A stretch of DNA of 64,000 nucleotides from Gammaproteobacteria bacterium (GTDB lineage: Bacteria; Pseudomonadota; Gammaproteobacteria; Legionellales; Legionellaceae), in contig JAUICE010000002.1 in assembly GCA_030428185.1 (NCBI GenBank), positions 14,000-77,999 on the forward strand, read 5' to 3'. Position numbers and translations under genes: made by a program. Every line of letters starts with the position of its first letter. Positions within the stretch are counted from its first letter, which is position 1. Below the pieces are notes generated by a model that did not search any database, was not told where the DNA came from, and saw nothing but the letters and a program-made list of their open reading frames with translations. This document shows positions 8,696 through 21,758 of the stretch, piece after piece.

Positions 8696-9406
8696 CTAGA
8701 CGTTGCGTTGCTGCGTGTCATATCTAGTCACCTCAAAGCCCGACCAATTGAGCCACCTATCGTTTGGCGATTTCGGCATACCGGTATAACGCCAAGCAAT
8801 CATCGCGGTTCTTGTTTGCTCTTTTATTTGATGAGTGAATTTATCAGTGTCGGTCATTTTAAAAACTACTTCAGCAAGATTGTGATGTGATTGCTCTTTG
8901 TCTTTATTGAGCGATTGATTTTCTAGAAAGTTAACGCTATAGACATGAACACTTCTGTCTGCTTTAACACCTAAGGTGTTAATCGGTGAATTAGGGTTAC
9001 GTTTATTATGTAAGTCGATGTATTGCCCCGCCACATAATCACTCGATAATAAATTAGTTAGCTGATATTGGTATTGATAAGAGCTAGCACTAAAACTCTC
9101 ACGGTTAATCACATAACGGACAATATCAGACTCGACTTGCTCAGGTGTCTTAGGCTCCGCATCATTTAAAGGCTCAACCGTTGTTAATCCATTATCATAA
9201 TGGTGAATAACCAACGGCACTAACGTTCGAATATTTGTGAGCACCAATACGGTAATCACCAATAAGCAATTAAAGCCTATAGACGCACCAAATCCTAGTC
9301 GATACCAAGAAAGCGTTACCTCACGATTGGCACGACATTCATCCGCCCAAGAGCGCGCATATTTAAATATGTTCTTTTTTTGCCTGTTAGTGCTGTCCGC
9401 TTGCAT
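8696..9406 (-). CDS. virB8: VirB8 bitopic inner-membrane assembly protein
   Basis: The real start is taken as ATG 9406..9404 (MQADSTNRQKK...), which forms TAATG with the virB6 stop. It has one TM segment (LGFGASIGFNCLLVITVLVL) followed by a VirB8 NTF2-like periplasmic domain. The 334-aa track ORF is an upstream extension through virB6. Confidence 0.85.
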   Translation of the reverse strand: MQADSTNRQKKNIFKYARSWADECRANREVTLSWYRLGFGASIGFNCLLVITVLVLTNIRTLVPLVIHHYDNGLTTVEPLNDAEPKTPEQVESDIVRYVINRESFSASSYQYQYQLTNLLSSDYVAGQYIDLHNKRNPNSPINTLGVKADRSVHVYSVNFLENQSLNKDKEQSHHNLAEVVFKMTDTDKFTHQIKEQTRTAMIAWRYTGMPKSPNDRWLNWSGFEVTRYDTQQRNV

Positions 9407-10467
9407 TAAAAACCTCCTTGCAAGTGATTTTTGATGGAAGAAAAATGTTGCTTGACACGCTCCATGCCACGATAAACGGCTTGTTGTGAGCCATATGGTG
9501 TTAAGGAGCTTGCGGCTCTTGCAGAGCCCGATAAAAGTTGCTTTGATGGCATTAAGGCTTTTGATTGACTGACCACACCTAAAGTGCTGCCAACAAATGC
9601 ACCAACCATGGCCGAGCCATGTCCTGTTGAGCAGGCGCCACCAATGGATTTTGCGATACGTGATGCTTCTAAGACCACCATCACACAAAGGGCTGCGCAA
9701 AATGATAACGGCACCCAGCTCACTAACTTGATACCCGCGGCTTTAGCCAGATAATGACCACCGATAGACCAGTGCACCAAGCTTAGTGCCAAGCCCACGA
9801 CACTAGAGACAAAAATTAAAACAAACGAGTAACCAACTAAATTGCCTAACCATCTGTCAAAAAAGCTTCTTGTATTATCAAATAAAGTAAAACTGATAAA
9901 TAATGGTGCGACACAATAACAAACCGTCATCATGAGCTTTGCTACCACGATTTCAAAAAAGGCAAGGCCTACCACTAAGCAACCAGCGATATAAATAACA
10001 AGAGAGGTAAACAATGGCCCTGGATTCATCAACGAGCCTTTAGCCCAAGTCCATGTGCCGACTCGTATCACTTCAATGAGCACTGACTGTAATCCGCCAT
10101 TAATCCCAGTGCCTGTAAAAATCGGTATGTCTAATGGATTGATTTGCATTAAGACGGCACCCAATTCACTCGATGCCTTATAGGTCAAATTGACGACAAA
10201 TTCAGAAAACATGCCCCAGTTCATCGCAAAGAGATAGACAAATGTGATGCGTAGTGCGACCTTGGTAAATTCATGCACCGGTGTTTTAACGATGCCTCGT
10301 GTAATTGCCAGCCCAGTCAATGCCATATATAAAACACACGCCAACCCTAATGGCTTCTCTAATAGATTTGCTAAGGTTTTATAACCATTTACCGTATAAG
10401 CATCGGTGATTAAATTAATCTGCGCAGTTAGCTTTAAAATAATGGTGGCGTATGTGGGTACTTGCAT
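9406..10467 (-). CDS. virB6: VirB6/TrbL polytopic inner-membrane protein
   Basis: Multiple TM helices and the position between B5 and B8. The start is taken as ATG 10467 (MQVPTYATIIL...) because the upstream part of the track ORF overlaps a better small lipoprotein gene in another frame. Confidence 0.8.
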   Translation of the reverse strand: MQVPTYATIILKLTAQINLITDAYTVNGYKTLANLLEKPLGLACVLYMALTGLAITRGIVKTPVHEFTKVALRITFVYLFAMNWGMFSEFVVNLTYKASSELGAVLMQINPLDIPIFTGTGINGGLQSVLIEVIRVGTWTWAKGSLMNPGPLFTSLVIYIAGCLVVGLAFFEIVVAKLMMTVCYCVAPLFISFTLFDNTRSFFDRWLGNLVGYSFVLIFVSSVVGLALSLVHWSIGGHYLAKAAGIKLVSWVPLSFCAALCVMVVLEASRIAKSIGGACSTGHGSAMVGAFVGSTLGVVSQSKALMPSKQLLSGSARAASSLTPYGSQQAVYRGMERVKQHFSSIKNHLQGGF

Positions 10468-10471
10468 GCGC

Positions 10472-10621
10472 TTAAGCCTTGTTATAATCCCAAACATTAA
10501 CCGGCGTTTGCGGGCAATACTTGCCAAAATTTGGGCATGGGCTATTGATATTCGTTTGCGCACAAGCCCCAAGTGATAACACCACCATTAAGGTACTTAT
10601 CCATTTCAATTTCTCTTTCAT
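10472..10621 (-). CDS. Small lipoprotein (49 aa), VirB7-like or entry-exclusion-like; not in the ORF track
   Basis: My translation is MKEKLKWISTLMVVLSLGACAQTNINSPCPNFGKYCPQTPVNVWDYNKA. It has a lipobox (LSLGA|C) after a hydrophobic signal sequence. The gene sits between virB5 and virB6, 15 nt after the virB5 stop and 4 nt before the virB6 ATG. Confidence 0.65.
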   Translation of the reverse strand: MKEKLKWISTLMVVLSLGACAQTNINSPCPNFGKYCPQTPVNVWDYNKA

Positions 10622-10636
10622 TTAAACCTCCACTGT

Positions 10637-11365
10637 TTACTCATCGGGTAATTGGTTAAACGATGCCATCTGCTCTTCGATAAAAAGCTTGTTTTCTTTA
10701 TCGCTTGCAGACTGTTTATTTAGGATGCTTAGTTGCTTTAAGATTTCGGTTTGCACATTGGCATTTTCAGCGGTGAGTCTCGCATTTAAATCAATGGCGC
10801 TTTTGCTATTGCTTGCTTTTTCAATTTCACTGCTTAATTTATGGATATTGTCAAAGTGCTGATTAACACGGTTATAGCTTGCGGTCGCTTGTGAGTCCGC
10901 GTTTTGTGCTAAGAGCTTATTGTCTTTGTATTTTTTATAGTTCGTACTTTCTTGACCTTTAAATAGCTTGCTATCTAATAAGGGATGTGATTTTTGATAG
11001 GATTTAAGTAGCGACTGGTAGCGAGACGAGTTGCCCCCAGAGATATTATTGATGGTATCTTGCCAATTATCAGCAGACCATTGTCTATCTTTTAAATCAT
11101 TTAGCGTGTTTTTAAGATTACCCCAGCCGTAATTGCCTTGATTAAAATCTTTAAGGCGCGATAATTCTTGTAATTGGTCTTTGGTGGCGGTTAGTTGTGA
11201 TTTAGCCTCATTTAAGGTATCAAGTGAGATGCCGTATTGACGCATGATGCCATCGGCAATGTGCTTTATGGGCCCTAATAAATCATCAACAATACCCGCA
11301 TGTGACGAAAGGGAAGTTAATATCAATCCGACGACTACAGCTTTTTTATAATTATTTACGTGCAT
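10637..11365 (-). CDS. virB5: VirB5/TrbJ-family minor pilus protein
   Basis: A signal peptide and a helical Q/N/K-rich 240-aa protein located immediately after virB4 (10-nt overlap). Confidence 0.75.
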   Translation of the reverse strand: MHVNNYKKAVVVGLILTSLSSHAGIVDDLLGPIKHIADGIMRQYGISLDTLNEAKSQLTATKDQLQELSRLKDFNQGNYGWGNLKNTLNDLKDRQWSADNWQDTINNISGGNSSRYQSLLKSYQKSHPLLDSKLFKGQESTNYKKYKDNKLLAQNADSQATASYNRVNQHFDNIHKLSSEIEKASNSKSAIDLNARLTAENANVQTEILKQLSILNKQSASDKENKLFIEEQMASFNQLPDE

Positions 11366-13791
11366 ACACCACTCCTTTCAATATAATCTGGCAGCCAATC
11401 GGTTGGGTTATAGCCTTTTTCAATAATGAGTTCGTCAAGCAATCGATTAGACTTCTCAGTTGCTGATAGCACTCTGAGCTCTTCTTTCAGGGCACTTAAA
11501 TCTAGCTTACAGAGTATCGACTCATGCTCTTGCTTATAGAGAAATAAGCGTGATGAGGGGTTATTGCTAGCAATTGCCTGGTATTCAGCGGAATTTAGCT
11601 TTAATTCATCGCAGTAAATATTTTCTTTGGCACTGGGATTGGGGAATAAAATCAAGGTCGCTTTGTTATCCATGATTTGCGCATGAATACTGGACTCCAC
11701 TATCGTTTGTGGCGACTGTGTCATCATAATCACATGCGCATTTTTCTTTCGGATAGTAGGTAGCCACTCCGATAACACCTTTTGCCAATACGGAGAACCT
11801 AAAACCTGCCAAGTCTCATCGATAACAATTGAGGTAAGCTTTCCATCTAGCGATTCACGCATACGATGTAATAAATACATATAAACCGGCGTTGAGATAT
11901 GATGAGTTACCGAGTCCATTAAAAAGCTCACATCAAAGCCATTGATTGCTTTATTAAGTGATAGCGAGTCCTCTTCATTATCAAATAGCCACGCATATTC
12001 GCCGTCTTTACGCGCACCTTCTCCTTTTAACCAGCGTTTAAGCTCGTTATGTCTTGGGAAGTCATGCGGCAAGCATTTGGCAACAACACTTAAGCATCGA
12101 TATTTGCCCTCTAAATCATCAAAAGCATAATCGACACAGTCATTGACCACTTCAGATAGCTCGCCATCCAAAATCACTTCATCTGATTTAAAAAGCAGCG
12201 AGCAAAACCATTGCTTGATAAAACTTCTATTTTCTTTGCTGTCTGGCAGCTTAAACGGGTTAAAGTGAACCCTGTCTGAATTAGAAGGCTTTACTATCGT
12301 GTAAGTCCCATCATTGGCTAACACAAAAGGACGTGACGCCTCATCGCGCTCTAGATAAAAACTCCTTCCTTGATAGCGCATTAGTTGCGCCACTAAAAAA
12401 TTAGCGAGCACCGTTTTACCAGCGCCATTGCCGCCAATGATTAAGGTGTGACCTTTGGAGGGATTATCTTTTGAGCCTTTGGCATGTAAATTTAAATAGA
12501 CGTTTTTTTTTGAGGGGGTATCAACTAGCGTTACAGCACTGCCTAGATGATTTTCATCTTGATATCCTTGCGGCTCATTATGTAGTGCACAGAAGTCTGC
12601 AAAGTTCTTTGCTGTTATCAATGCACGTCGAGCCAAAAAGAGTTGATTGGTTGGTATTTGGCTGAAAAATGCCGCCTCTAACCCTAAATTTTCTTTAAAG
12701 ACCGTAATACCAGAAAGCGCGTAGGCTTTACTGGCTTTATTGATTGCCTCCTCTAGCTTGGATTCCGTATCATTTATCAACATCAAAGAGTGCTGGTAAT
12801 GGCCTAGTAATGTTTTATCACTAGCGATTTCATCTTCAAGATGAGATAAATCGCTAATCTGGGTTTCAGCTAAGTCATTTGCTGAGTGTAACTTACCCCG
12901 CTTTAAATCAATCGCCTTAAGTGATTCATAACGTGCCGCAACCTCAAAGCTATGTGTTGCAATAAACTCATTATCAATCGATTGTATTGGGTCAAAGATG
13001 ATGTTTGCGCTATGCGATGGGTATTGCTTGATAGAAAGCATCGCTGCAAAGCGTGTATCATCCTTGCCTGCACCCTGAAACTGGATGTTTGAGCCAAATA
13101 GAATTTGCTTTTGACAAAGGTATGGCGATATTTTTCCCTCAGGATAAAGCGCGTTATCCCCTTTAACCTTAATGCCACATCCCGCATTAGTAAAAAGTGA
13201 TAAAAAATATAAAAGCTCGCTATAACCTTTTTCTTTATCATTTTCACCAAGCAACGCTGGGTTGAACGATGATAGCTTTGATAGCAGCTCGTCACGCTTT
13301 TGTATTAAGCGATTTATTTGTGTTTCTCTTGTTGCGCTGTAAGCACTCATTGTTTTTGAGTGCGAATAGCTTTTTAACGATACAACTGGGCCTGAAGACT
13401 TGTGACTGCTTTTTAAAATAAGCGTGAAATAAATGTCATTGCAGTAGCTGTTTTTAGTTTTTAAGGCATTAAAGTAGGCTTGATTGATTTGGCTTGCAAA
13501 TGCCGATTTAAATTCACTAGTTAATCTCATGTCAGCTTTTCTTCTATGAATAGTAACATGCGTAATAAAACTCTCATCCAAGCCTAAAAGCGCTTGATGA
13601 AGTTCAAGGTGTAATTGATTGAGCTTGATATTTTCTTGTGTTGCATAAGGCACACCCTCGATTTTAAAAGTAGAGCCAATATGACCATCAGCTGACTCAA
13701 AGATAGTTTCGCTATTTAAATGGGTTATCGGGAATACATCAGATAAGCTCATTTCTTTTTTCGTTAACACCAATGAATTAAAAGGGTTCAT
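11356..13791 (-). CDS. virB4: VirB4 ATPase
   Basis: 811 aa with Walker A IIGGNGAGKTVLANF and a CagE/TrbE/VirB4 layout. It overlaps virB3 by 14 nt. Confidence 0.93.
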   Translation of the reverse strand: MNPFNSLVLTKKEMSLSDVFPITHLNSETIFESADGHIGSTFKIEGVPYATQENIKLNQLHLELHQALLGLDESFITHVTIHRRKADMRLTSEFKSAFASQINQAYFNALKTKNSYCNDIYFTLILKSSHKSSGPVVSLKSYSHSKTMSAYSATRETQINRLIQKRDELLSKLSSFNPALLGENDKEKGYSELLYFLSLFTNAGCGIKVKGDNALYPEGKISPYLCQKQILFGSNIQFQGAGKDDTRFAAMLSIKQYPSHSANIIFDPIQSIDNEFIATHSFEVAARYESLKAIDLKRGKLHSANDLAETQISDLSHLEDEIASDKTLLGHYQHSLMLINDTESKLEEAINKASKAYALSGITVFKENLGLEAAFFSQIPTNQLFLARRALITAKNFADFCALHNEPQGYQDENHLGSAVTLVDTPSKKNVYLNLHAKGSKDNPSKGHTLIIGGNGAGKTVLANFLVAQLMRYQGRSFYLERDEASRPFVLANDGTYTIVKPSNSDRVHFNPFKLPDSKENRSFIKQWFCSLLFKSDEVILDGELSEVVNDCVDYAFDDLEGKYRCLSVVAKCLPHDFPRHNELKRWLKGEGARKDGEYAWLFDNEEDSLSLNKAINGFDVSFLMDSVTHHISTPVYMYLLHRMRESLDGKLTSIVIDETWQVLGSPYWQKVLSEWLPTIRKKNAHVIMMTQSPQTIVESSIHAQIMDNKATLILFPNPSAKENIYCDELKLNSAEYQAIASNNPSSRLFLYKQEHESILCKLDLSALKEELRVLSATEKSNRLLDELIIEKGYNPTDWLPDYIERSGVCT

Positions 13792-14065
13792 AACACCTCA
13801 CACCCCAGATAGACTTATTTAGTTGATTGGGAAGCAGAAATTTTGCTTTAAGCACATTAAAAAAATGCGGGTCGATACGGCATATTTGCCAACCGATTAA
13901 ATGCAGTGGGAAATAACAAAGCCCGTAAAGCAAGTTACCTGTTGCGATTAAAAGTGCCATCGCAACGATTAAGTTAATGCCAAAGACTTCTAACGTGACG
14001 CCGGCTGTTAATGCCGGTCTCGTTAGCGCGCCATAGAGTGGATTTATCATGAGGTTTTCTTCCAT
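13778..14065 (-). CDS. virB3: VirB3 inner-membrane protein
   Basis: 95 aa with LYGALTRPALTAGV followed by two TM helices, a typical VirB3 pattern. It lies between virB2 and virB4. Confidence 0.85.
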   Translation of the reverse strand: MEENLMINPLYGALTRPALTAGVTLEVFGINLIVAMALLIATGNLLYGLCYFPLHLIGWQICRIDPHFFNVLKAKFLLPNQLNKSIWGVRCYEPF

Positions 14066-14067
14066 AA

Positions 14068-14352
14068 CTAACCTACCAGCGCGCTATAAATTGATGAGCT
14101 ACCAAAGACCACGCCTAAACCAATGAGCGTTAACAAAAACTGCTCTTTGGGAAAACGTTGCTTAAAGATACAAAGGTAGCCCGAGCCAACCACTGCAATA
14201 AGACCTATGCTTTTAGCCACATCACCTTGTAAGAACCCAACTAGCTTATCTAAGATGCTGGTAATGGTGATATGGCCACTGCTAGCAAGCGCATCCAATG
14301 GCAGCAGTAAACTTACCGCTAGTGGAATAAGAAAGTGTTTTATTTTCATCAT
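14068..14352 (-). CDS. virB2: VirB2/TrbC-type pilin
   Basis: 94 aa with a long signal peptide (…DALA|SS) and two hydrophobic helices. It is the first gene of the virB cluster. Confidence 0.8.
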   Translation of the reverse strand: MMKIKHFLIPLAVSLLLPLDALASSGHITITSILDKLVGFLQGDVAKSIGLIAVVGSGYLCIFKQRFPKEQFLLTLIGLGVVFGSSSIYSALVG

Positions 14353-14388
14353 GAATTCCTTGTAAATCTGAAAAACTTAAGCAAGAGT

Positions 14389-14571
14389 TCAAGCTTTATA
14401 TCGAGCTTGAATCACCTTTTCATTAAAGAGCTCTTCCCTATCAATATCGACATCCCTGTCCGCCAAAAACGCTAAGCGCACACTGGTTCCAACAACACCC
14501 AATACTTTGACAAATATCCGACCGTTATCTATGACGACCTGCTGCCCTTCTCTTCTATCTAAAACCAACAT
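14389..14571 (-). CDS. csrA: CsrA-family RNA-binding regulator paralog (ICE-associated, LvrC/CsrT-like)
   Basis: MLVLDRREGQQVVIDNGRIFVKVLGVVGTSVRLAFLADRDVDIDREELF aligns with canonical CsrA [48 protein letters not shown]. It lies directly upstream of virB2, as in the Legionella lvh/ICE loci. Confidence 0.88.
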   Translation of the reverse strand: MLVLDRREGQQVVIDNGRIFVKVLGVVGTSVRLAFLADRDVDIDREELFNEKVIQARYKA

Positions 14572-15047: not shown

Positions 15048-15798
15048 GCTGCTTCTCCTCTAGCATCTCTTCTGTGACTTCATCTTCCCAAGCACGCTGT
15101 GCTAGCCAGTTTGCGGGATATTTCCACGGGGCTACCCATTGACCTTGTGACTTTTGTTGTTTGTAAAAAGCAATCTGTGTTTTGAGTGACTGCATGATTT
15201 GAGTAATTAAACTTTCATCCGGGTTTAATAATTCAAACTCAGCCAGTGCTTTTTGCTTGGATTTTTTTACAGGGTAAATCGACCAGAATTTTTCAAAAGA
15301 TAAATATAAATAATTATTATTACTTAGAGGTATGACGGCTTCTGGTGTTTTGTTAGTGTCGGCTTTTTGTAACGAACTGCTTGATAAACCCTTATTTACA
15401 GCGTTTTCTTGTGATTTGTTTATGACTTCTTGCTGTGACGCCTTTGTGACTGCTTTGTTTTGAGCATAACTCGACTTACCAGCCAATAAGCATTTTAAAA
15501 CAAGCTGCTTGTCACTCGATTGAATAGTAATTAATCCAGCACGCTCTAAACCTTTTAACGCACGGCGAAGCTGTGCTTTAGAAGGGGAGCCTGATTGAAT
15601 GCCTGGGTGAGGCTCAACGTATAAGGATTCTGATAGGGATTGATAGCTAATACGGCGCTTAATGCCAACAAGAGAGGAGTGCTTATCCATATACGGACGA
15701 GCACCAAATATATAGGCTACTCGCTGTATATAAGGTAAGTCCCTCAATGCAGATAGCTCTATGTTATTTAAAACTACAAAATCCATCTTCTTGCTCAC
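14917..15798 (-). CDS. LvrA-like protein with a winged-helix domain plus a phage replication/recruitment-like C-domain
   Basis: 293 aa. A wHTH-like segment is present (SKAQLRRALKGLERAGLITI), and the C-terminal FEKFWSIYPVKKSKQKALAEF...YPANWLAQRAWEDE motif is common in phage/ICE replication-associated proteins. It is the first gene of the lvr-csrA-virB transcription unit. Confidence 0.55.
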   Translation of the reverse strand: MSKKMDFVVLNNIELSALRDLPYIQRVAYIFGARPYMDKHSSLVGIKRRISYQSLSESLYVEPHPGIQSGSPSKAQLRRALKGLERAGLITIQSSDKQLVLKCLLAGKSSYAQNKAVTKASQQEVINKSQENAVNKGLSSSSLQKADTNKTPEAVIPLSNNNYLYLSFEKFWSIYPVKKSKQKALAEFELLNPDESLITQIMQSLKTQIAFYKQQKSQGQWVAPWKYPANWLAQRAWEDEVTEEMLEEKQHASRQTDFKRTAVKDPFYDACKEGDDTKEQTSNVVKFRLHSSS

Positions 15799-16171
15799 CG
15801 CTGTTAAAAACCAATATCAAATGGTTATATTTGATATCACATATTACTCACTATGAACTTTATTCTTTCAGAATATGTTTTTTTATTTTATTCAGTCAAT
15901 GAATTTCTAGCTATGTAACTAAATGAACTTGAATGAAATTCTAGTCAGTTAATTTCATTAAGTGGTCGACTTCAGCGCTGTGTAGCAGCGTTATAACTCG
16001 CTAAAAAACAAAATCAAGTTTGTAGGTGACAGGTCCTTTTTTATGTTGCCATGATTCACTCGCAATATTCCTAGGACGGTATTATTATCTCTCTGTGCTC
16101 ATTTGTTAGCCATAATTGGTTTTCATGGTATCATCCTTGGAACTCAATTCTTAACTTTAAAACAGTTTTTC

Positions 16172-17419
16172 ATGGAAAAAACATCTCGTAAATATGGGGT
16201 AGTTGTTAGAGTAAAAAGAAGGATCTCCGATATTTATTTCGATATACCCTGCTTAACAAAAAAAGTCCTCCCAGTAGTTATTTTTGAGCAATTAGTGGCG
16301 GCATTTTGTTTAAATATTTCAGCATATTTTACCAAGGTTGATCGTATGCATTTCGGTAAAATTGGCGAATACATATCTTTTTTCTATTGGGGCAGTTTAG
16401 TTGGCGCATTGCTAGGTGCTTTCTTAACTTTACGTATTAGGAGTACCAAAATTTCTGGTGTTTGTCTTGTGGCTCTTGGTATATCTTTATATTTTCTATG
16501 TTCCTCGACAGATACTTTTAAAATATGTTTGGCAATGCTTTTTATGGGGGCCGCGGGTACAACAGCAGCGACAAGCAATAGCTCAAGTTTGATTCGATCT
16601 GTTGGTGATGCTAGTCATACAAAGTTAAAAATAATTAGTTTGGAATTAATATCGTTTAATTTATGTTTTTCATTCATGTCTTACATATTGATGTATTTAA
16701 CTCCGATTCAAATAGTTTTATTTTCTAAATTCTTATCATACGGACTAATTGTAATAGGAGGATATTCTCTCTTATATCTACAAAATAATATTTTTCATTC
16801 TATATATGAGAAGAAATTACTCAAGATGAAGCTAATACTTCCTAATGAAAAATGGAATTTTTCCGTTTTAATGATTATGGTTGTTTTATTTGGTTTGATT
16901 TTTTCAATGGTTAAGGTTATTTATACCCCAACCTTAATTAACAGGTTTGGTAACAGTCTTATTTCAGTTGCTGTTGCTTCAATCAATCCATGGCTTGTTT
17001 TTATCGTCCAGCCATTAATAATTGATAAAATTAAAAAAGGTAGTTCTTCATGGTGTCTAGGAGCGGGCGGGCTTATTACTGGAAGCAGTTACTTTATATT
17101 TGGTTTTGCAAGTTCATTTTGGTTGACAGCCATATCGTTAGTATTCTTAACATTTGGGGAGATGTTGTTTGCTCCACTATCGAAGCATTACTGTGTGCAG
17201 TCTTTTAAAAAAGGAGAAGAAGGTCTTGCTTTAGGTGTTTGGCGTTTTTTCTTTCTTGGGAGTGGGACAATTGGTCCAGAAATTTCAGGATTAATAGCTG
17301 ATAACTATGGAAGTAGTTTTGTTTGGGGACTTTGTGGCGTGTTTGGTTTGGGTTGCTTGCTTTTTTCAACGAGCTTAAAAGAGATGAAAAACAAAACAAA
17401 ATGTGTGATGATAAACTAA
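16172..17419 (+). CDS. MFS-type transporter (about 12 TM helices)
   Basis: Hydrophobic throughout with regularly spaced TM helices. The track starts at TTG 16103; the first ATG is at 16172 (MEKTSRKYG). It is the first gene of a tight three-gene plus-strand cassette. Confidence 0.7.
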   Translation: MEKTSRKYGVVVRVKRRISDIYFDIPCLTKKVLPVVIFEQLVAAFCLNISAYFTKVDRMHFGKIGEYISFFYWGSLVGALLGAFLTLRIRSTKISGVCLVALGISLYFLCSSTDTFKICLAMLFMGAAGTTAATSNSSSLIRSVGDASHTKLKIISLELISFNLCFSFMSYILMYLTPIQIVLFSKFLSYGLIVIGGYSLLYLQNNIFHSIYEKKLLKMKLILPNEKWNFSVLMIMVVLFGLIFSMVKVIYTPTLINRFGNSLISVAVASINPWLVFIVQPLIIDKIKKGSSSWCLGAGGLITGSSYFIFGFASSFWLTAISLVFLTFGEMLFAPLSKHYCVQSFKKGEEGLALGVWRFFFLGSGTIGPEISGLIADNYGSSFVWGLCGVFGLGCLLFSTSLKEMKNKTKCVMIN

Positions 17420-17447
17420 TAAGATCTAAAAACAATGAAGAGTGAAT

Positions 17448-17633
17448 ATGAATATATATAACTACTTGGTGACGTTAGCATTAAAGCCGTTATCTCTGAA
17501 AAATGAAAGAGACATGAGTTCATTGGATTCTTTAGGTACCTCATCTAAAATAAAGGACATGCTATCTCAACAAGGGTATGAAGAAATTCATGGAGATAAG
17601 CTAGCCTGTGAAACAAGAGCCCCGGATTTATAA
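17448..17633 (+). CDS. Small peptide (61 aa from ATG 17448; 63 aa from GTG 17442), candidate RiPP precursor for the adjacent methyltransferase
   Basis: GAAGAG lies 5 nt upstream of ATG 17448. The ORF ends 21 nt before the methyltransferase start. Sequence: MNIYNYLVTLALKPLSLKNERDMSSLDSLGTSSKIKDMLSQQGYEEIHGDKLACETRAPDL. No family was recognised; the call rests on position only. Confidence 0.35.
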   Translation: MNIYNYLVTLALKPLSLKNERDMSSLDSLGTSSKIKDMLSQQGYEEIHGDKLACETRAPDL

Positions 17634-17654
17634 GTGATTTTCTAAGATTGTAAA

Positions 17655-18440
17655 ATGAACGAGTTATACATTGTTGGCTCCGGTATCAAATTTTTATCTC
17701 ATTTAACCCTTGAAGCCAAGGCATTAATTAATGAGGCAGACTGTGTATTGTATCTTTTAAATGAAACAGCCATGAAGCACTGGGTAGTTGAAAATTCAAA
17801 AAAAGCTATTTCTTTAGATGATATATACTTTTCTAGTGAAAAGCGCACTGAGTCATATCGTAAAATAGCTTCAAAAGTTATAGATATTTCTTTACAGCAT
17901 AGAAATACATGTTTTGTGATCTATGGACATCCACTTGTCCTATGTGAGCCAGTAGTAAAAATCATTCGATCAGACTCAAGACAATCTAATAAACTAAGAG
18001 TGAATGTTTTGCCGGGTATATCGAGTCTTGATTGTTTATTCAGTGACCTGGAGGTCGATCCTGGAGAGTTTGGTATTCAAGCATTTGAGGCAACAAATTT
18101 TGTAACGCATGACTATGATTTCTCTATTCATTCAAATTTAGTTTTGTGGCAAATAGGAGTCTCTGGTATCACAAGCATTGTTTCAACAGAAAATGAGCAG
18201 TTAGAAGCAAAGAGGTTGAAGTCTATCGCATTAATAACTAAAAAATTACTCAAAAAATATGACTGGAATCATGAAGTTTACTTGTATGTGGCCGCACAAT
18301 ATCCACAAATTTCTTGTGAAATTCAAAAAATAAAACTATGTGATTTGCCCAACGTGAGCATAAATCGATTAGCTACAGCATATATCCCGCCTTTAGGTTA
18401 TGCAAAAAAAAGTAGCAAAGTATTAAAGGATTTATCCTAG
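17655..18440 (+). CDS. Stand-alone borosin-type peptide alpha-N-methyltransferase (tetrapyrrole-methylase fold, OphMA/SonM-like)
   Basis: Motif-by-motif match to the OphMA methyltransferase domain as I recall it:
- LYIVGSGIKFLSHLTLEA vs LTIVGTGIESIGQMTLQA
- KRTESYRKI vs SRLNTYTQM (catalytic R/Y spacing)
- VIYGHPLVL vs VFYGHPGVF
- LPGISSLDCLFSDLEVDP vs LPGVSAEDCLFADLCIDP
- IHSNLVLWQIGVSG vs IHSHLVLFQVGCVG
- ATAYIPP vs STFYIPP
At 261 aa it has no fused clasp or core region. Confidence 0.75.
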   Translation: MNELYIVGSGIKFLSHLTLEAKALINEADCVLYLLNETAMKHWVVENSKKAISLDDIYFSSEKRTESYRKIASKVIDISLQHRNTCFVIYGHPLVLCEPVVKIIRSDSRQSNKLRVNVLPGISSLDCLFSDLEVDPGEFGIQAFEATNFVTHDYDFSIHSNLVLWQIGVSGITSIVSTENEQLEAKRLKSIALITKKLLKKYDWNHEVYLYVAAQYPQISCEIQKIKLCDLPNVSINRLATAYIPPLGYAKKSSKVLKDLS

Positions 18441-19786
18441 AAATTTGTAGGTGTTATTTGAACACAACCCCTTAGAAATTGACCCTCAAAACAAAAGTCA
18501 GTGTAGTTTTTTTTCTTCTCTGTCGAGAACACAAATCTTGGATCAATCTCACACAAGCGTCTTGTATTTTGAATCTGTTTGCTATTTTTAGGTGGAATAT
18601 TATGGAAATAGGAAAAGGATACATTATTATGAAGCTCAGAGAATACTGTTCCAGATAACATAGAGCTTTCTTTGCTCATTTCCTCAATAAATCTAGACAG
18701 AATACCATCCATAATTTCAATTTCCTGATTGGCAGTTACTCTTTCATTTTTCTTTGTCAAAAAATGGGGGGTAGTTGGATTTTGGAATGAATAATATACA
18801 GGATCTTTTTCCAACTCATATGAGAGCGAGTGGGGTACCATTATAGTCGGAAATTTCTTTAACTGAAAAGATTCGGAGATCAAAGGTTGAATTTCATCTA
18901 TAGGTAAGAGTTCATTATTAACAGCAGGAATATATCCGGGGTGTTCACCAAGAGCGATCTTAATAAGATGAATAGCAGAGTTCGTTAAATATGGACTGGA
19001 TATTCTAAGATTCCTATCTTTTTGAACTTTTGAATAGAAAATATCATAGAATACACTATTTGAATTAAAAGAATCTTTCGTGCTTTTACCTTCTAAAATA
19101 TAGTTTTTTACTTGCTCCCAGGCTGAGTCATTAGTAATTGCATTTATCCACTTGCTGCTGAAATAAGCCAAGCATAATTTCCATTTTGTATCACTACATT
19201 CACTAATAGCCTTAAAGAGAGAAAAATGATCTGATGATTTTCTTGGTGTAGAAATATCAGCTCCAATATTCCTTTTAAGTCTGTTGATTCCTATATGGCT
19301 ATTAATACTTGGAAGCATGAAGGCAGTTCTTGAGCCGGCGGTCGCTTTTAATATGCCATTTGGAGTATAAATTCTACCTTTTTGTTTCTTTAGAAGAATG
19401 CCTTTGTTGAAAATTGTGCCTGGGCCATCTACTTGAAAGGGTATCACTTGGTCTGAAAACTCAATGTAGTATTCAAGTTGTTTCTCAAGTATTACGCCTA
19501 GTGGTGATGAAAACATACCATAGCCAAGATCAGTAACAATCTTTTTATCTACATCCGGGGATGACATGCTTATAAAACCACCATCCTGCGTAGGTAAAAA
19601 TGAGTTCGATGTATCGCCCTTTAGCATCCCGTATGGAAAATATAAGAGATAAATTGGAAAACTCTTACCTGGAGAAACATCATCAATCAATTTTGTTAAG
19701 TGAGGATCAACTTTACTAAATCTTCCTCTTACATTATCCCACGAGGTTCTTACAGTTCCTTTATTTTCATCATTTGATACTAACAT
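18437..19786 (-). CDS. Hypothetical protein, 449 aa, no recognisable family; convergent with the methyltransferase and overlapping it by 4 nt
   Basis: A long uninterrupted ORF in AT-rich cargo DNA. Its stop codon shares the palindrome CTAG with the methyltransferase stop. No TM segment, signal peptide or catalytic motif was recognised by eye. Confidence 0.6.
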   Translation of the reverse strand: MLVSNDENKGTVRTSWDNVRGRFSKVDPHLTKLIDDVSPGKSFPIYLLYFPYGMLKGDTSNSFLPTQDGGFISMSSPDVDKKIVTDLGYGMFSSPLGVILEKQLEYYIEFSDQVIPFQVDGPGTIFNKGILLKKQKGRIYTPNGILKATAGSRTAFMLPSINSHIGINRLKRNIGADISTPRKSSDHFSLFKAISECSDTKWKLCLAYFSSKWINAITNDSAWEQVKNYILEGKSTKDSFNSNSVFYDIFYSKVQKDRNLRISSPYLTNSAIHLIKIALGEHPGYIPAVNNELLPIDEIQPLISESFQLKKFPTIMVPHSLSYELEKDPVYYSFQNPTTPHFLTKKNERVTANQEIEIMDGILSRFIEEMSKESSMLSGTVFSELHNNVSFSYFHNIPPKNSKQIQNTRRLCEIDPRFVFSTEKKKNYTDFCFEGQFLRGCVQITPTNF

Positions 19787-19985
19787 CTTGATAACTTAAC
19801 AGCTCGATATAAATACACTTATAAAAATGGTTTTTATAAGTATTATACATTATGCCTTTTAAAAGTGATTTGGTAAATAAGAGATTTGTGTTCGAATAAC
19901 AGCCAATTAGATTGGCTAAATAAATTTTTAGGAGAATGACAGGAACATGATTAATTTAAGTTAGGAGTAAAAAAATTTTTTTCAA

Positions 19986-20222
19986 ATGAATTCAACAAAT
20001 GGAGTAATCTCAATGCAAAAAAGAAATTCTAAGGAATTGCCGCAGGAAATTTTATTTATCACCGATATTGAAAAAATGATTGGAAGAAATCGATTAACGC
20101 TGCGACGTTGGTGGACCGATGGTAAATTTCCTAAGCCTATCAAACTACACGGAACTACGCTGGCATGGTCAAAAAGTACAATTGAAAGATGGATTGAAGA
20201 TAGTATAGAGATCAAAAATTAA
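19986..20222 (+). CDS. alpA: AlpA-family (prophage CP4-57-type) HTH regulator/excisionase
   Basis: ILFITDIEKMIGRNRLTLRRWWTDGKFPKPIKLHGTTLAWSKSTIERWI matches the AlpA pattern (…RSTIYRL…G.FP.P..LG…V.W…EV..W). It lies upstream of the integrase. Confidence 0.8.
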   Translation: MNSTNGVISMQKRNSKELPQEILFITDIEKMIGRNRLTLRRWWTDGKFPKPIKLHGTTLAWSKSTIERWIEDSIEIKN

Positions 20223-20245
20223 ATCAAGTTTTACAAGGATGAAAA

Positions 20246-20623
20246 ATGAGTAACTTATCAATTCTGCCTAGACTCATTCGTCTTAGAGATGCCCCCTCAT
20301 ATCTGGGCATGGATCGGCACCGTTTTAACAAAGAAGTAAGACCCAAAGTGACAGAAGTCCCTATGGGAACACAAGGAATAGCCTTCGATAGGCTTGATTT
20401 AGATGCTTGGGTCGACGATTATATACGCTGTAGTGGTCGTCCTGCGGTAGCCAAGCAGAGGAGTTTGGAACAATGGGACGAAAAAAATCGCCAGGTCTCT
20501 TTAAAAGGGGAAACTACTGGCATATCGATAAAGCGATCTTTGGATGTCGTATTCGAGAAAGCACTGGTACGAGCAACCTCGAAGAAGCAGAGAAATACTT
20601 TGCAAAACGTATCGAAGAAATAA
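20246..20623 (+). CDS. Second excisionase/AlpA-like small DNA-binding protein
   Basis: RLIRLRDAPSYLGMDRHRFNKEVRPKV...GIAFDRLDLDAWVDDY resembles excisionase-family HTH proteins. The 3' 151 nt overlap the integrase in another frame. Confidence 0.55.
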   Translation: MSNLSILPRLIRLRDAPSYLGMDRHRFNKEVRPKVTEVPMGTQGIAFDRLDLDAWVDDYIRCSGRPAVAKQRSLEQWDEKNRQVSLKGETTGISIKRSLDVVFEKALVRATSKKQRNTLQNVSKK

Positions 20624-21597
20624 GGCAGGCAAGTGTATTTGGTGTTCGCCCCAAGCGTACTTTTATGGAGGCAGCTATTAAGTATCTGGATGAGAATCAA
20701 CATAAACGGAGTATTAGTGATGATGCAGGTCGCTTGCGAAATCTTGTTCAGTATATAGGTAAATTACCTTTGGATGCGATTCACATGGGTACTTTGCAAC
20801 CTTTTATTGATGGTAGGCGCAAAGATGGCGTAAAAACACGAACCATTAATCATGGTTTGAAAATTGTACGCCGAATAGCGAACTTATCTTCAACAGAGTG
20901 GATCGATGAGTATGGGCTGACTTGGTTGGCTACCCCACCAAAGATAAAATTACTACCAGAGCATGATTTACGCAAGCCTTATCCGTTAAGTTGGGAGGAG
21001 CAACAAAAACTTTTTTCTGAGTTACCTTCTCATTTAGAAAAGATGGCATTATTTGCTGTCAATACTGGATGCCGTGAAAGAGAAGTGTGTCGACTACAAT
21101 GGGACTGGGAAATAAAAATCTCTGAAATGTCACATTTGACGGTATTTATCATTCCTCCTGAGCTTGTTAAAAATGGTGATGAACGACTTGTTGTTTGTAA
21201 TCAAGTTGCAAAATCGGCTGTAGATAGTCAGCGAGGAGTACATGAAAAATATGTTTTTACCTTTAAAGGGCGGCCGGTTACTCGTATAAATAATACTGGA
21301 TGGAAGGAGGCTCGCAAGAAAGCTGGATTAGAGTTTGTAAGAGTCCATGACTTAAAACATACTTTTGGTAGGCGATTACGCTCTGTTAGTGTGAGTTTTG
21401 AAGACAGGCAGGATTTATTGGGGCATCGCTCTGGCAGAATAACAACGCACTATTCATCAGCCGAGTTGCAAAATTTATATGATGCTGCAAATAAGGTTTG
21501 CGAGAAAAAACAGAGTGGGGTAGTACTTACTTTGTTACGCAACCCTAATAACCGAAAGATAGAAACAAAGCAAAATAAGAGCGCTGTGCGCTTATAA
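20473..21597 (+). CDS. int: Tyrosine recombinase / phage-type integrase
   Basis: The N-terminus GLFKRGNYWHID is typical of P4-like integrases. Catalytic signatures TGCREREV (Arg), HDLKHTFGRRLR (H-x-x-R) and LLGHRSGRITTHYS (His...Tyr) are present. GAGGAG lies 9 nt before the ATG, and the gene is adjacent to a tRNA. Confidence 0.92.
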   Translation: MGRKKSPGLFKRGNYWHIDKAIFGCRIRESTGTSNLEEAEKYFAKRIEEIRQASVFGVRPKRTFMEAAIKYLDENQHKRSISDDAGRLRNLVQYIGKLPLDAIHMGTLQPFIDGRRKDGVKTRTINHGLKIVRRIANLSSTEWIDEYGLTWLATPPKIKLLPEHDLRKPYPLSWEEQQKLFSELPSHLEKMALFAVNTGCREREVCRLQWDWEIKISEMSHLTVFIIPPELVKNGDERLVVCNQVAKSAVDSQRGVHEKYVFTFKGRPVTRINNTGWKEARKKAGLEFVRVHDLKHTFGRRLRSVSVSFEDRQDLLGHRSGRITTHYSSAELQNLYDAANKVCEKKQSGVVLTLLRNPNNRKIETKQNKSAVRL

Positions 21598-21681
21598 ATT
21601 GTTTTGTGGCCCACAAAATCCCCACAAGGATTTTATGGAATAGAAGGGTCAGTTTTAACTTGTTGATTTTAAAGAGTTATA

Positions 21682-21758
<77 letters not shown>

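Follow-up and report, generated by a model that had tools for sequence, protein, structure and literature searches.

What does a protein do whose gene ends inside the stop codon of a peptide-modifying enzyme? The question arises in a stretch of 64,000 nucleotides from a Gammaproteobacteria bacterium of the Legionellaceae (assembly GCA_030428185.1, contig JAUICE010000002.1, positions 14,000 to 77,999 of the forward strand), referred to here as the window. A protein of 449 amino acids, which we call X (P0001), is encoded there on the minus strand at 18437..19786, tail to tail with a borosin-type peptide alpha-N-methyltransferase (MT). An earlier note on the window, made from its letters alone, had singled out X as an orphan without an assignable motif. 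We find that X is a near-obligate, tail-to-tail partner of Legionellales borosin MTs and a member of a large, conserved, unnamed protein family. We tentatively propose that it may be a hydrolase of new fold that matures the modified peptide.

Linkage of X to borosin methyltransferases

The open reading frame (ORF) of X begins with ATG, and its translation, its homologues and an AlphaFold model agree with the earlier view that it is a real coding sequence. The MT gene (P0002; 17655..18440, plus strand) terminates with TAG at 18438-18440, and the TAG stop of X on the minus strand is read as CTA at 18437-18439 on the plus strand. Because the two coincide, both convergent stop codons share the CTAG at 18437-18440, just as had been noted. 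The MT has the TP_methylase fold (Pfam PF00590 at 5.5e-17), and its best PDB matches are SonM (7ltc) and OphMA (5n0q), at an E of about 1e-28 over the whole length. It carries VIYGHP and LDCLFSD, and the motifs YGHP and DCLFSD have been used to define borosin methyltransferases (bioRxiv 10.1101/2021.12.24.474128).

We surveyed 201 Legionellaceae genomes for X genes lying within 3.2 kb of an MT gene on the same contig. These genomes hold 103 borosin-type MT genes, 93 of which have an X gene nearby, and the two are convergent in 92 of the 93. Counted from the side of X, 86 of the 101 full-length genes at least 28% identical to that of the window are linked to an MT. The earlier note had named assignment of X to a well-known family and a lack of co-occurrence with the MT as findings that would speak against its reading; no known family was found for X, and the co-occurrence is 93/103. 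The spacing between the two genes falls into three classes, directly adjacent, about 600 nt and about 1250 nt, and in the mapped loci of the last class an MFS gene sits between X and MT.

At the loci retrieved, X and MT face each other in 38 of 40 pairs. Where the two genes adjoin directly (18 pairs), their stops lie -33 to +11 nt apart, with an overlap in 12 of these pairs. The CTAG overlap in the window is one case of a conserved, family-wide trait. The arrangement MFS, small ORF and MT, facing X, recurs beside F-type and P-type type IV secretion systems (T4SS) on different plasmids and in the chromosomes of L. pneumophila; in L. steelei all four cassette genes lie on one strand. X is the best conserved of the three large cassette genes: its identity is 64-66%, whereas the MT reaches 47-48% and the MFS transporter 49-54%.

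No terminator-like site was found in 15700-20300, and the X/MT junction forms no hairpin beyond what shuffled sequence gives on either strand (z about 0.2). Because the junction has neither terminator nor hairpin, and because most adjacent pairs have coding regions that touch or overlap, antisense overlap between the transcripts of X and of the modifying enzyme must follow; the layout of the DNA shows it, and for the RNA we infer it. The run-on of transcription suggested in the earlier note, with no space left for a terminator, is a trait conserved in the family and not a local accident.

Six of the ten MT genes without a nearby X were inspected. One lies beside a remnant of X, one locus has an insertion sequence, one reaches the contig end after the MFS gene, one MT is truncated, and two belong to a GNAT-associated subtype. 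We found no known peptidase substituting for X at these inspected loci. Decayed X genes, which are truncated, split or interrupted by internal stops, were seen beside an MT at L131:8894-9289, G179:C16:21143-22184 and G199:C1:1126979-1128260; the MT is intact in L131 and G199, and in G179 it gives a truncated match. X can therefore vanish while the rest of the cassette stays. The second MT subtype, which has no X, was seen at L130:6332-7622 and L134:6642-7590, with an integrase adjoining both; it has a different upstream ORF of 61 amino acids and resembles the Shewanella type, and L130 also contains a GNAT (PF13302) fragment.

The term orphan does not fit X. A word-indexed search returned 49 full-length relatives with 29-67% identity, all labelled 'hypothetical protein' and derived from Legionella or metagenomes, several of them on plasmids. 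An exhaustive profile search at E<=1e-3 returned no fewer than 1312 cluster representatives, 775 of them at E<=1e-30, and the best 150 of the 1312 are mostly 430-460 amino acids long and align end to end. The family occurs in 45 of 400 sampled genomes of the class, from 42 genera. The X-bearing genomes in this sample are all small (1.5-4.2 Mb) and often have at least four copies and tandem pairs; all sampled matches lie in small-genome Gammaproteobacteria such as the Legionellales and Coxiellaceae. Named records come from Legionella, Fluoribacter, Coxiellaceae, Francisellaceae, Thiotrichales and unclassified gammaproteobacterial metagenome-assembled genomes. Expansions were observed in genomes G378, G228, G440 and G266 (up to 19 first-look candidates and at least four scored copies), and tandem pairs at loci L114, L123, L125, L065 and L077.

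The remark that X has no assignable motif agrees with our searches, in which no known family emerged from Pfam, NCBIfam, PDB sequences or PADLOC, and PHROGs gave matches at chance level only (E about 0.1). PADLOC also had no match for the 420-residue X paralogue described below, the MT or the precursor. Pfam assigned no domain to ten sampled members, and neither domain fusions nor named homologues were found, all being hypothetical proteins of about 430-460 amino acids without a Pfam domain. Three alignments of X (A1, A2, A3) used in sequence and profile searches of the PDB gave only chance-level matches to RagB (0.036), THI13 (0.49) and TDP2/Bd1971 (about 1).

The predicted fold and conserved residues of X

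An AlphaFold2 model of X, built from a 26-sequence alignment, has a pLDDT of 87 and a pTM of 0.88, and a separate model of residues 179-449 has a pLDDT of 87 and a pTM of 0.84. Secondary structure and Foldseek indicate an N-terminal beta-rich domain at about residues 45-160 (19307..19654, minus strand), and the domain model places a C-terminal domain of about 270 amino acids, helical and alpha/beta, at residues 179-449 (18440..19252, minus strand).

Foldseek found nothing at E<=1e-3 for the full model against the PDB. The best matches were CRP/FNR-family proteins aligned to the N-terminal part, with E of 2e-3 to 3e-2, a probability of up to 0.98, template modelling scores of 0.2-0.46 and a root-mean-square deviation of about 10 A. 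The viral library BFVD gave weak Crp and cupin matches only, and the cNMP domain of Bd1971 was a weak profile match (E=1); cyclic-nucleotide-binding CAP/CRP domains and cupins are the sole fold matches of this domain. X is unmatched by Pfam cNMP_binding (PF00027), and neither a phosphate-binding cassette nor a DNA-binding winged helix-turn-helix (wHTH) could be assigned. For the C-terminal domain, Foldseek against the PDB showed no relative (best E 3.9) and the profile search of PDB sequences returned nothing. As modelled, X is an N-terminal CAP/cupin-like beta-roll followed by a domain of about 270 residues without a detectable relative among solved folds. The structure prediction and Foldseek search that the earlier note had proposed have thus given two confident models and no fold relative in the PDB.

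Among 185 members, polar conservation falls on Y89, E105, R153, H187 (or Q), Q300, Y331, S333, H395, D415, R439 (or K) and C441, and six of these (E105, R153, S333, H395, D415 and C441) persist in each of the three clades of X described below. Cys441 (codon 18464..18466, minus strand, as for the following) lies in an FLRGC motif, is present in 95% of members and opens the last beta-strand of the predicted secondary structure; it is a candidate catalytic nucleophile or metal ligand. His395 (18602..18604; 97%) stands at the end of a beta-strand, Asp415 (18542..18544) is conserved in 95% of members, Ser333 (18788..18790; 96%) belongs to a YYS motif, and Glu105 (19472..19474; 98%) is in the N-terminal domain. 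Readings of the His...Asp...Cys order as that of a clan CD, clan CE or sortase-like enzyme were considered and are unsupported by the predicted secondary structure and by Foldseek.

Precursor peptides, sister clades and cassette neighbours

A small ORF (P0004; 17442..17633, plus strand), whose product ends in ...LACETRAPDL, lies directly upstream of the MT gene. The listed GTG start gives a product of 63 amino acids that begins VNMNIY..., and homologues begin MNIY... or MSL...; translation probably starts instead at the ATG of position 17448, which gives 61 amino acids. Small ORFs of this family occur directly upstream of the MT in 35 loci, and P0004 aligns with 27 others in this position (28 distinct loci). 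The family has an N-terminal helix, M-x-I-x-x-L-L-E-x-L-A-x-x-P, a helical middle part and a C-terminal motif, [FL]-[AP]-[NCD]-E-x-x-V-[VF], after which the chain stops within 3-8 residues. A hidden Markov model (HMM) of the small ORFs upstream of MTs found members only at MT-linked loci. Judged by these sequence features, the 63-residue ORF is a member of a real, conserved family of predicted precursors.

A RODEO-based study of borosins (bioRxiv 10.1101/2024.01.09.574750; hereafter the RODEO study) describes Legionellales clusters without a borosin-binding domain and with precursor motifs of their own, for which its authors made the HMMs BoroLegA and BoroLegB. Our assignment of the precursor rests on the HMM built here from the small ORFs and not on BoroLegA/B. 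The window has a SonM/OphMA-type MT with a separate, adjoining precursor, the composition of a split borosin, and the same composition is found in known split clusters (type IV, SonM/SonA of Shewanella, and the Legionellales clusters without a borosin-binding domain). Backbone N-methylation of P0004 is predicted. The window differs from split borosins in that its precursor has no recognised borosin-binding domain, and in that X outconserves the MT and also accompanies other enzymes.

The absent domain raises a reading in which X is a non-catalytic scaffold that presents the leader helix of the precursor to the MT. It would account for the Legionellales clusters that the RODEO study reports as having no borosin-binding domain and for the near-obligate co-occurrence of X and MT, and the N-terminal beta-roll does resemble ligand-binding CAP domains. 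However, a protein of 449 amino acids with a family-wide set of Cys, His, Asp, Ser and Glu looks catalytic, and X also partners class-I MTs at loci where no precursor is seen. Nor was there a match of X to PqqD or an RRE, either at E<=1 in Pfam or among the Foldseek matches listed, RRE-Finder not having been applied. We regard a scaffold as improbable.

A maximum-likelihood tree of 94 X proteins revealed three groups, and the window protein belongs to group A, which is linked to borosin MTs. Group B proteins come from many non-Legionella lineages, and a transporter, either POT (di/tripeptide) or MFS, typically lies beside the X gene. Where a class-I S-adenosylmethionine (SAM) methyltransferase is present, its gene faces X in 12 of 12 pairs, the stops lying -11 to +16 nt apart and overlapping in 10 (loci L112-L117, L122, L063, L065, L071, L072 and L078, usually with an adjoining POT transporter). 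The fold of this methyltransferase is unrelated to that of the borosin enzyme; it has weak, sub-threshold profile matches (Methyltransf_25, NTM1-like, Erm-like) and no PDB sequence match. No precursor-like small ORF was found in the group B loci.

Group C consists of X paralogues of 420 amino acids, about 25% identical, from 11 Legionellaceae genomes. Their clusters encode X, an ATP-grasp enzyme, a ThiS-like protein, a ThiF-rhodanese protein, YcaO and TfuA, together with a POT transporter and regulators that include a wHTH protein. X either opens the operon, with a 44-nt overlap with the ATP-grasp gene, or is convergent with TfuA. The YcaO is nearest to the type that thioamidates the McrA glycine (TIGR03266, 5.7e-40, below the cut-off), and the ATP-grasp enzyme is nearest to L-amino-acid ligases. 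The group C cluster is likely to make a thioamidated peptide. The plasmid and integrative conjugative element (ICE) loci of the group are L098-L108 (genomes G192, G172, G186, G188, G139, G187, G152, G193, G153, G075 and G045), and L098:3364-12450 is an example of the cluster. The clusters also contain small acidic ORFs of 42-61 amino acids; as borosin-type precursors these gave no HMM match, and the likeness of ...ENETVH to ...ANETNV... is visual only. YcaO and TfuA genes beside Tra regions have been noted as unknowns (PMC3218107), and the papers searched say nothing of this cluster beyond that mention of 'YcaO/TfuA of unknown function'.

The borosin cassette itself is extended by a divergent operon in Fluoribacter gormanii ATCC 33342 (L057:453-8516; also at L056 and L082), which encodes a class-II DAHP synthase, a BesC-like heme-oxygenase-like diiron enzyme, a class-I MT and an ATP-grasp enzyme of the BacD/DdaF-like (L-amino-acid-ligase-like) type. 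Its gene content suggests a larger hybrid peptide or amino-acid product.

Across the clades X is constant, as are transporters for short peptides, and the peptide-amide modifier or methyltransferase is variable. X could for this reason itself be the protein that is modified, an enzyme that receives methyl groups on its backbone or side chains from the borosin or class-I MT, or thioamides from YcaO/TfuA, in the way that McrA does in methanogens. Constancy of X against three unrelated types of modifier would be expected of such a client, as would the likeness of the group C YcaO to the McrA-glycine type and the missing precursor in the class-I-MT clade. The loop at residues 341-350 of X is conserved yet modelled with low confidence, and large proteins can be borosin substrates according to a survey from 2021 (bioRxiv 10.1101/2021.12.24.474128). 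Yet in every Legionellales-type cassette the ORF just before the MT encodes a small, conserved precursor that has its core at the C-terminus, the termini of X past its last strand are short and not conserved, and the MFS or POT transporter would be left unexplained. A role as client is an unlikely one for X.

The convergent layout has a bearing on a further reading, in which X and the modifier form an antagonistic pair, either of a 'modify-or-cleave' kind or for immunity. X would hydrolyse the unmodified peptide or a cellular target, which the amide modification would shield, or would destroy re-imported product and so provide self-resistance. N-methylation and thioamidation of amides both block proteases. 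Overlapping convergent stops occur with two unrelated MT folds (38/40 and 12/12 pairs, down to -33 nt), ICEs and plasmids carry the cassettes, POT importers often lie nearby, and X has a promoter region of its own with a palindrome.

This palindrome, which had been seen 5' of X as a strong one of 11 bp, was confirmed at 19817..19841 as the perfect ACTTATAAAAA-N3-TTTTTATAAGT, whose arms measure 11 nt each; it stands 31 nt before the X ATG and is a candidate operator. Of 5000 shuffles of the 200-nt region upstream of X, 16 produced arms of at least 11 nt, and there are just four palindromes with such arms in the whole window. In L009, L020 and L024, AT-rich palindromes built around the core AAAAACC/GGTTTTT precede X by 30-55 nt; they are confined to the closest relatives, which suggests an operator kept among them. 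No regulator gene for this putative operator was identified. A sigma-70-like promoter match, TTTACC-17-CATAAT, lies upstream of X at 19849..19877 on the minus strand; it is a consensus match only, and the number of such matches in the region does not exceed that in shuffles.

Like convergent restriction-modification pairs, X and MT combine a putative hydrolase with a methyltransferase on mobile DNA, their genes overlapping at the 3' ends. However, the MTs here are of peptide type or have an unassigned substrate, no nuclease motif was found and PADLOC has no match, so that the likeness is an analogy of architecture only. An antagonistic pair is also difficult to reconcile with the YcaO clade and with L. 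steelei, where X runs in the same direction as the biosynthetic genes. The X pseudogene beside an intact MT (L131) is neutral in this respect; it would be wrong for addiction to X as a toxin only if the MT were dispensable. On balance, we consider that X and its modifier are probably not antagonists.

The fourth gene of the cassette encodes an MFS transporter (P0003; 16103..17419, plus strand; Pfam MFS_1), which is kept in the cassette. Homologues align only from residue 43-45 of the listed ORF, which has an in-frame Met at residue 24, and the true start is probably downstream of the listed TTG. The low G+C content that had been observed for the cassette is borne out, at 0.32-0.35 at 16-20 kb versus about 0.38-0.41 in the flanks. 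VirB4, VirB6/TrbL, T4SS and CsrA genes lie at 9406-14571, and on the opposite side of the cassette an AlpA-like gene, a tyrosine integrase and tRNA-Met (19986..21758) form the end of an ICE, beyond which rpoD is found. The four-gene cassette is cargo of this ICE.

The position of X beside T4SS genes on an ICE, and its unassigned function in a Legionella lineage, bring to mind a Dot/Icm or conjugative T4SS effector that is separate from the peptide cassette, and the earlier note had listed a T4SS substrate among its suggestions. We consider this very improbable. The linkage of X follows the MT across T4SS types and chromosomal sites, the family extends beyond Legionella to 42 genera and has biosynthetic neighbours in biosynthetic-type operons, and the C-terminus of X is structured and conserved (FLRGC and the final strand).

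X as a candidate maturation enzyme

The cassette encodes a precursor, an MT and an exporter, and no known peptidase; X is the sole other conserved gene. Because the cassette has no peptidase, and because X is the only other conserved gene and has a conserved Cys/His/Asp set (with Ser, Glu and Arg), we propose X as the peptide maturase, a hydrolase of new fold, and hold this reading tentatively. The precursor motif is conserved just ahead of a short core, which points to the need for a peptidase. The near-obligate linkage to the MT, the higher conservation of X than of its partners and the peptide-related neighbours of X in the sister clades also speak for this reading. In Shewanella, the borosin protease SamP favours the methylated precursor, as reported in the RODEO study (bioRxiv 10.1101/2024.01.09.574750).

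If X is this maturase, the C-terminal core of the precursor (17442..17633; 61-63 amino acids) would be backbone-N-methylated by the borosin-type MT, and X, acting as a two-domain cytosolic protein, would process the methylated peptide, probably by cutting off the leader at or near the A-[C/N/D]-E motif. The beta-roll would bind a ligand or the peptide, and the C-terminal domain would carry Cys441, His395 and Asp415 (the wider set adding Ser333, Glu105 and Arg153). The MFS transporter may export the short product after the step performed by X. The tail-to-tail layout would give X its own promoter and operator-like palindrome, and the forced antisense overlap may couple or balance the expression of X and of the modifying enzyme. 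We infer the hydrolase chemistry, the cleavage site, the order of the steps and the regulatory meaning of the overlap alike.

Several observations weigh against a maturase. X has no likeness to any hydrolase, including peptidases of clans CA/CD/CE, S9 and A1, in Pfam, NCBIfam, PDB sequence and profile searches or Foldseek (E<=1e-3). C441, H395 and D415 are conserved in sequence, and their clustering in space is putative; the conserved residues could instead form a metal site or be structural. No precursor-like small ORF was found in the class-I-MT/POT clade, and a role as leader peptidase is therefore not obviously general. Genes of biosynthetic pathways are usually co-directional, and strict convergence is commoner in immunity, regulatory or restriction-modification-like pairs.

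The context that suggests a hydrolase would serve equally for a second tailoring step of a non-hydrolytic kind, for instance a cyclisation, or a ligation or transfer that uses a Cys441 thioester. The N, C or D of the precursor motif could supply a reactive side chain, and ATP-grasp ligases recur nearby. X showed neither a motif for cofactor binding nor the fold of a known transferase, and we think such a step doubtful.

A broader proposal would join the hydrolase to the other clades. By analogy with restriction-modification, X cassettes of intracellular Gammaproteobacteria may form an unrecognised and widespread 'modify-or-cleave' class acting on peptides or proteins, in which a new-fold hydrolase is locked, through tail-to-tail genes that share stop codons, to interchangeable amide modifiers such as a borosin MT, a class-I MT or YcaO/TfuA, and in which the modification decides whether and where X cuts. 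We offer this as a speculation with small odds in its favour.

The role proposed for X, release of the product from a methylated precursor, is the one played by OphP, a prolyl oligopeptidase macrocyclase, and by SamP/shewasin A, which is pepsin-like. Unlike these, X has no likeness in sequence or fold to S9, A1 or any other peptidase, and its role is read from context. With respect to YcaO/TfuA systems, which include the thioamitides and the thioglycine of McrA, one clade of X paralogues sits within YcaO-TfuA-ThiS-ThiF clusters carried by Legionella plasmids. No X-like protein is known from thioamitide clusters, and group C adds the L-amino-acid-ligase-like ATP-grasp enzyme and the POT transporter.

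In one survey, about a tenth (81/746) of type IV SonM-like split-borosin MT sequences are from the Legionellales. To our knowledge, neither a product nor a maturation enzyme of the Legionellales borosin clusters has been described. The RODEO study links Legionella borosin clusters to mobile elements and integrases, as is the case for the cassette in the window. Published accounts of these clusters, as far as they are accessible, describe the MT and the BoroLegA/B motifs, whereas the searchable text and supplements of the RODEO study and of the 2021 survey contain no mention of the 449-residue partner.

Nearly every Legionellales borosin cluster carries a further conserved gene, X, without a family name or a fold relative. 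The family is also found with thioamidation and class-I-MT clusters, in dozens of host-associated genera and in many L. pneumophila strains. The predicted new fold and the unusually rigid architecture of overlapping convergent stops call for an explanation. X is a concrete candidate for the missing maturation step, and is probably a missing core enzyme of peptide-product cassettes in Legionella and related intracellular bacteria.

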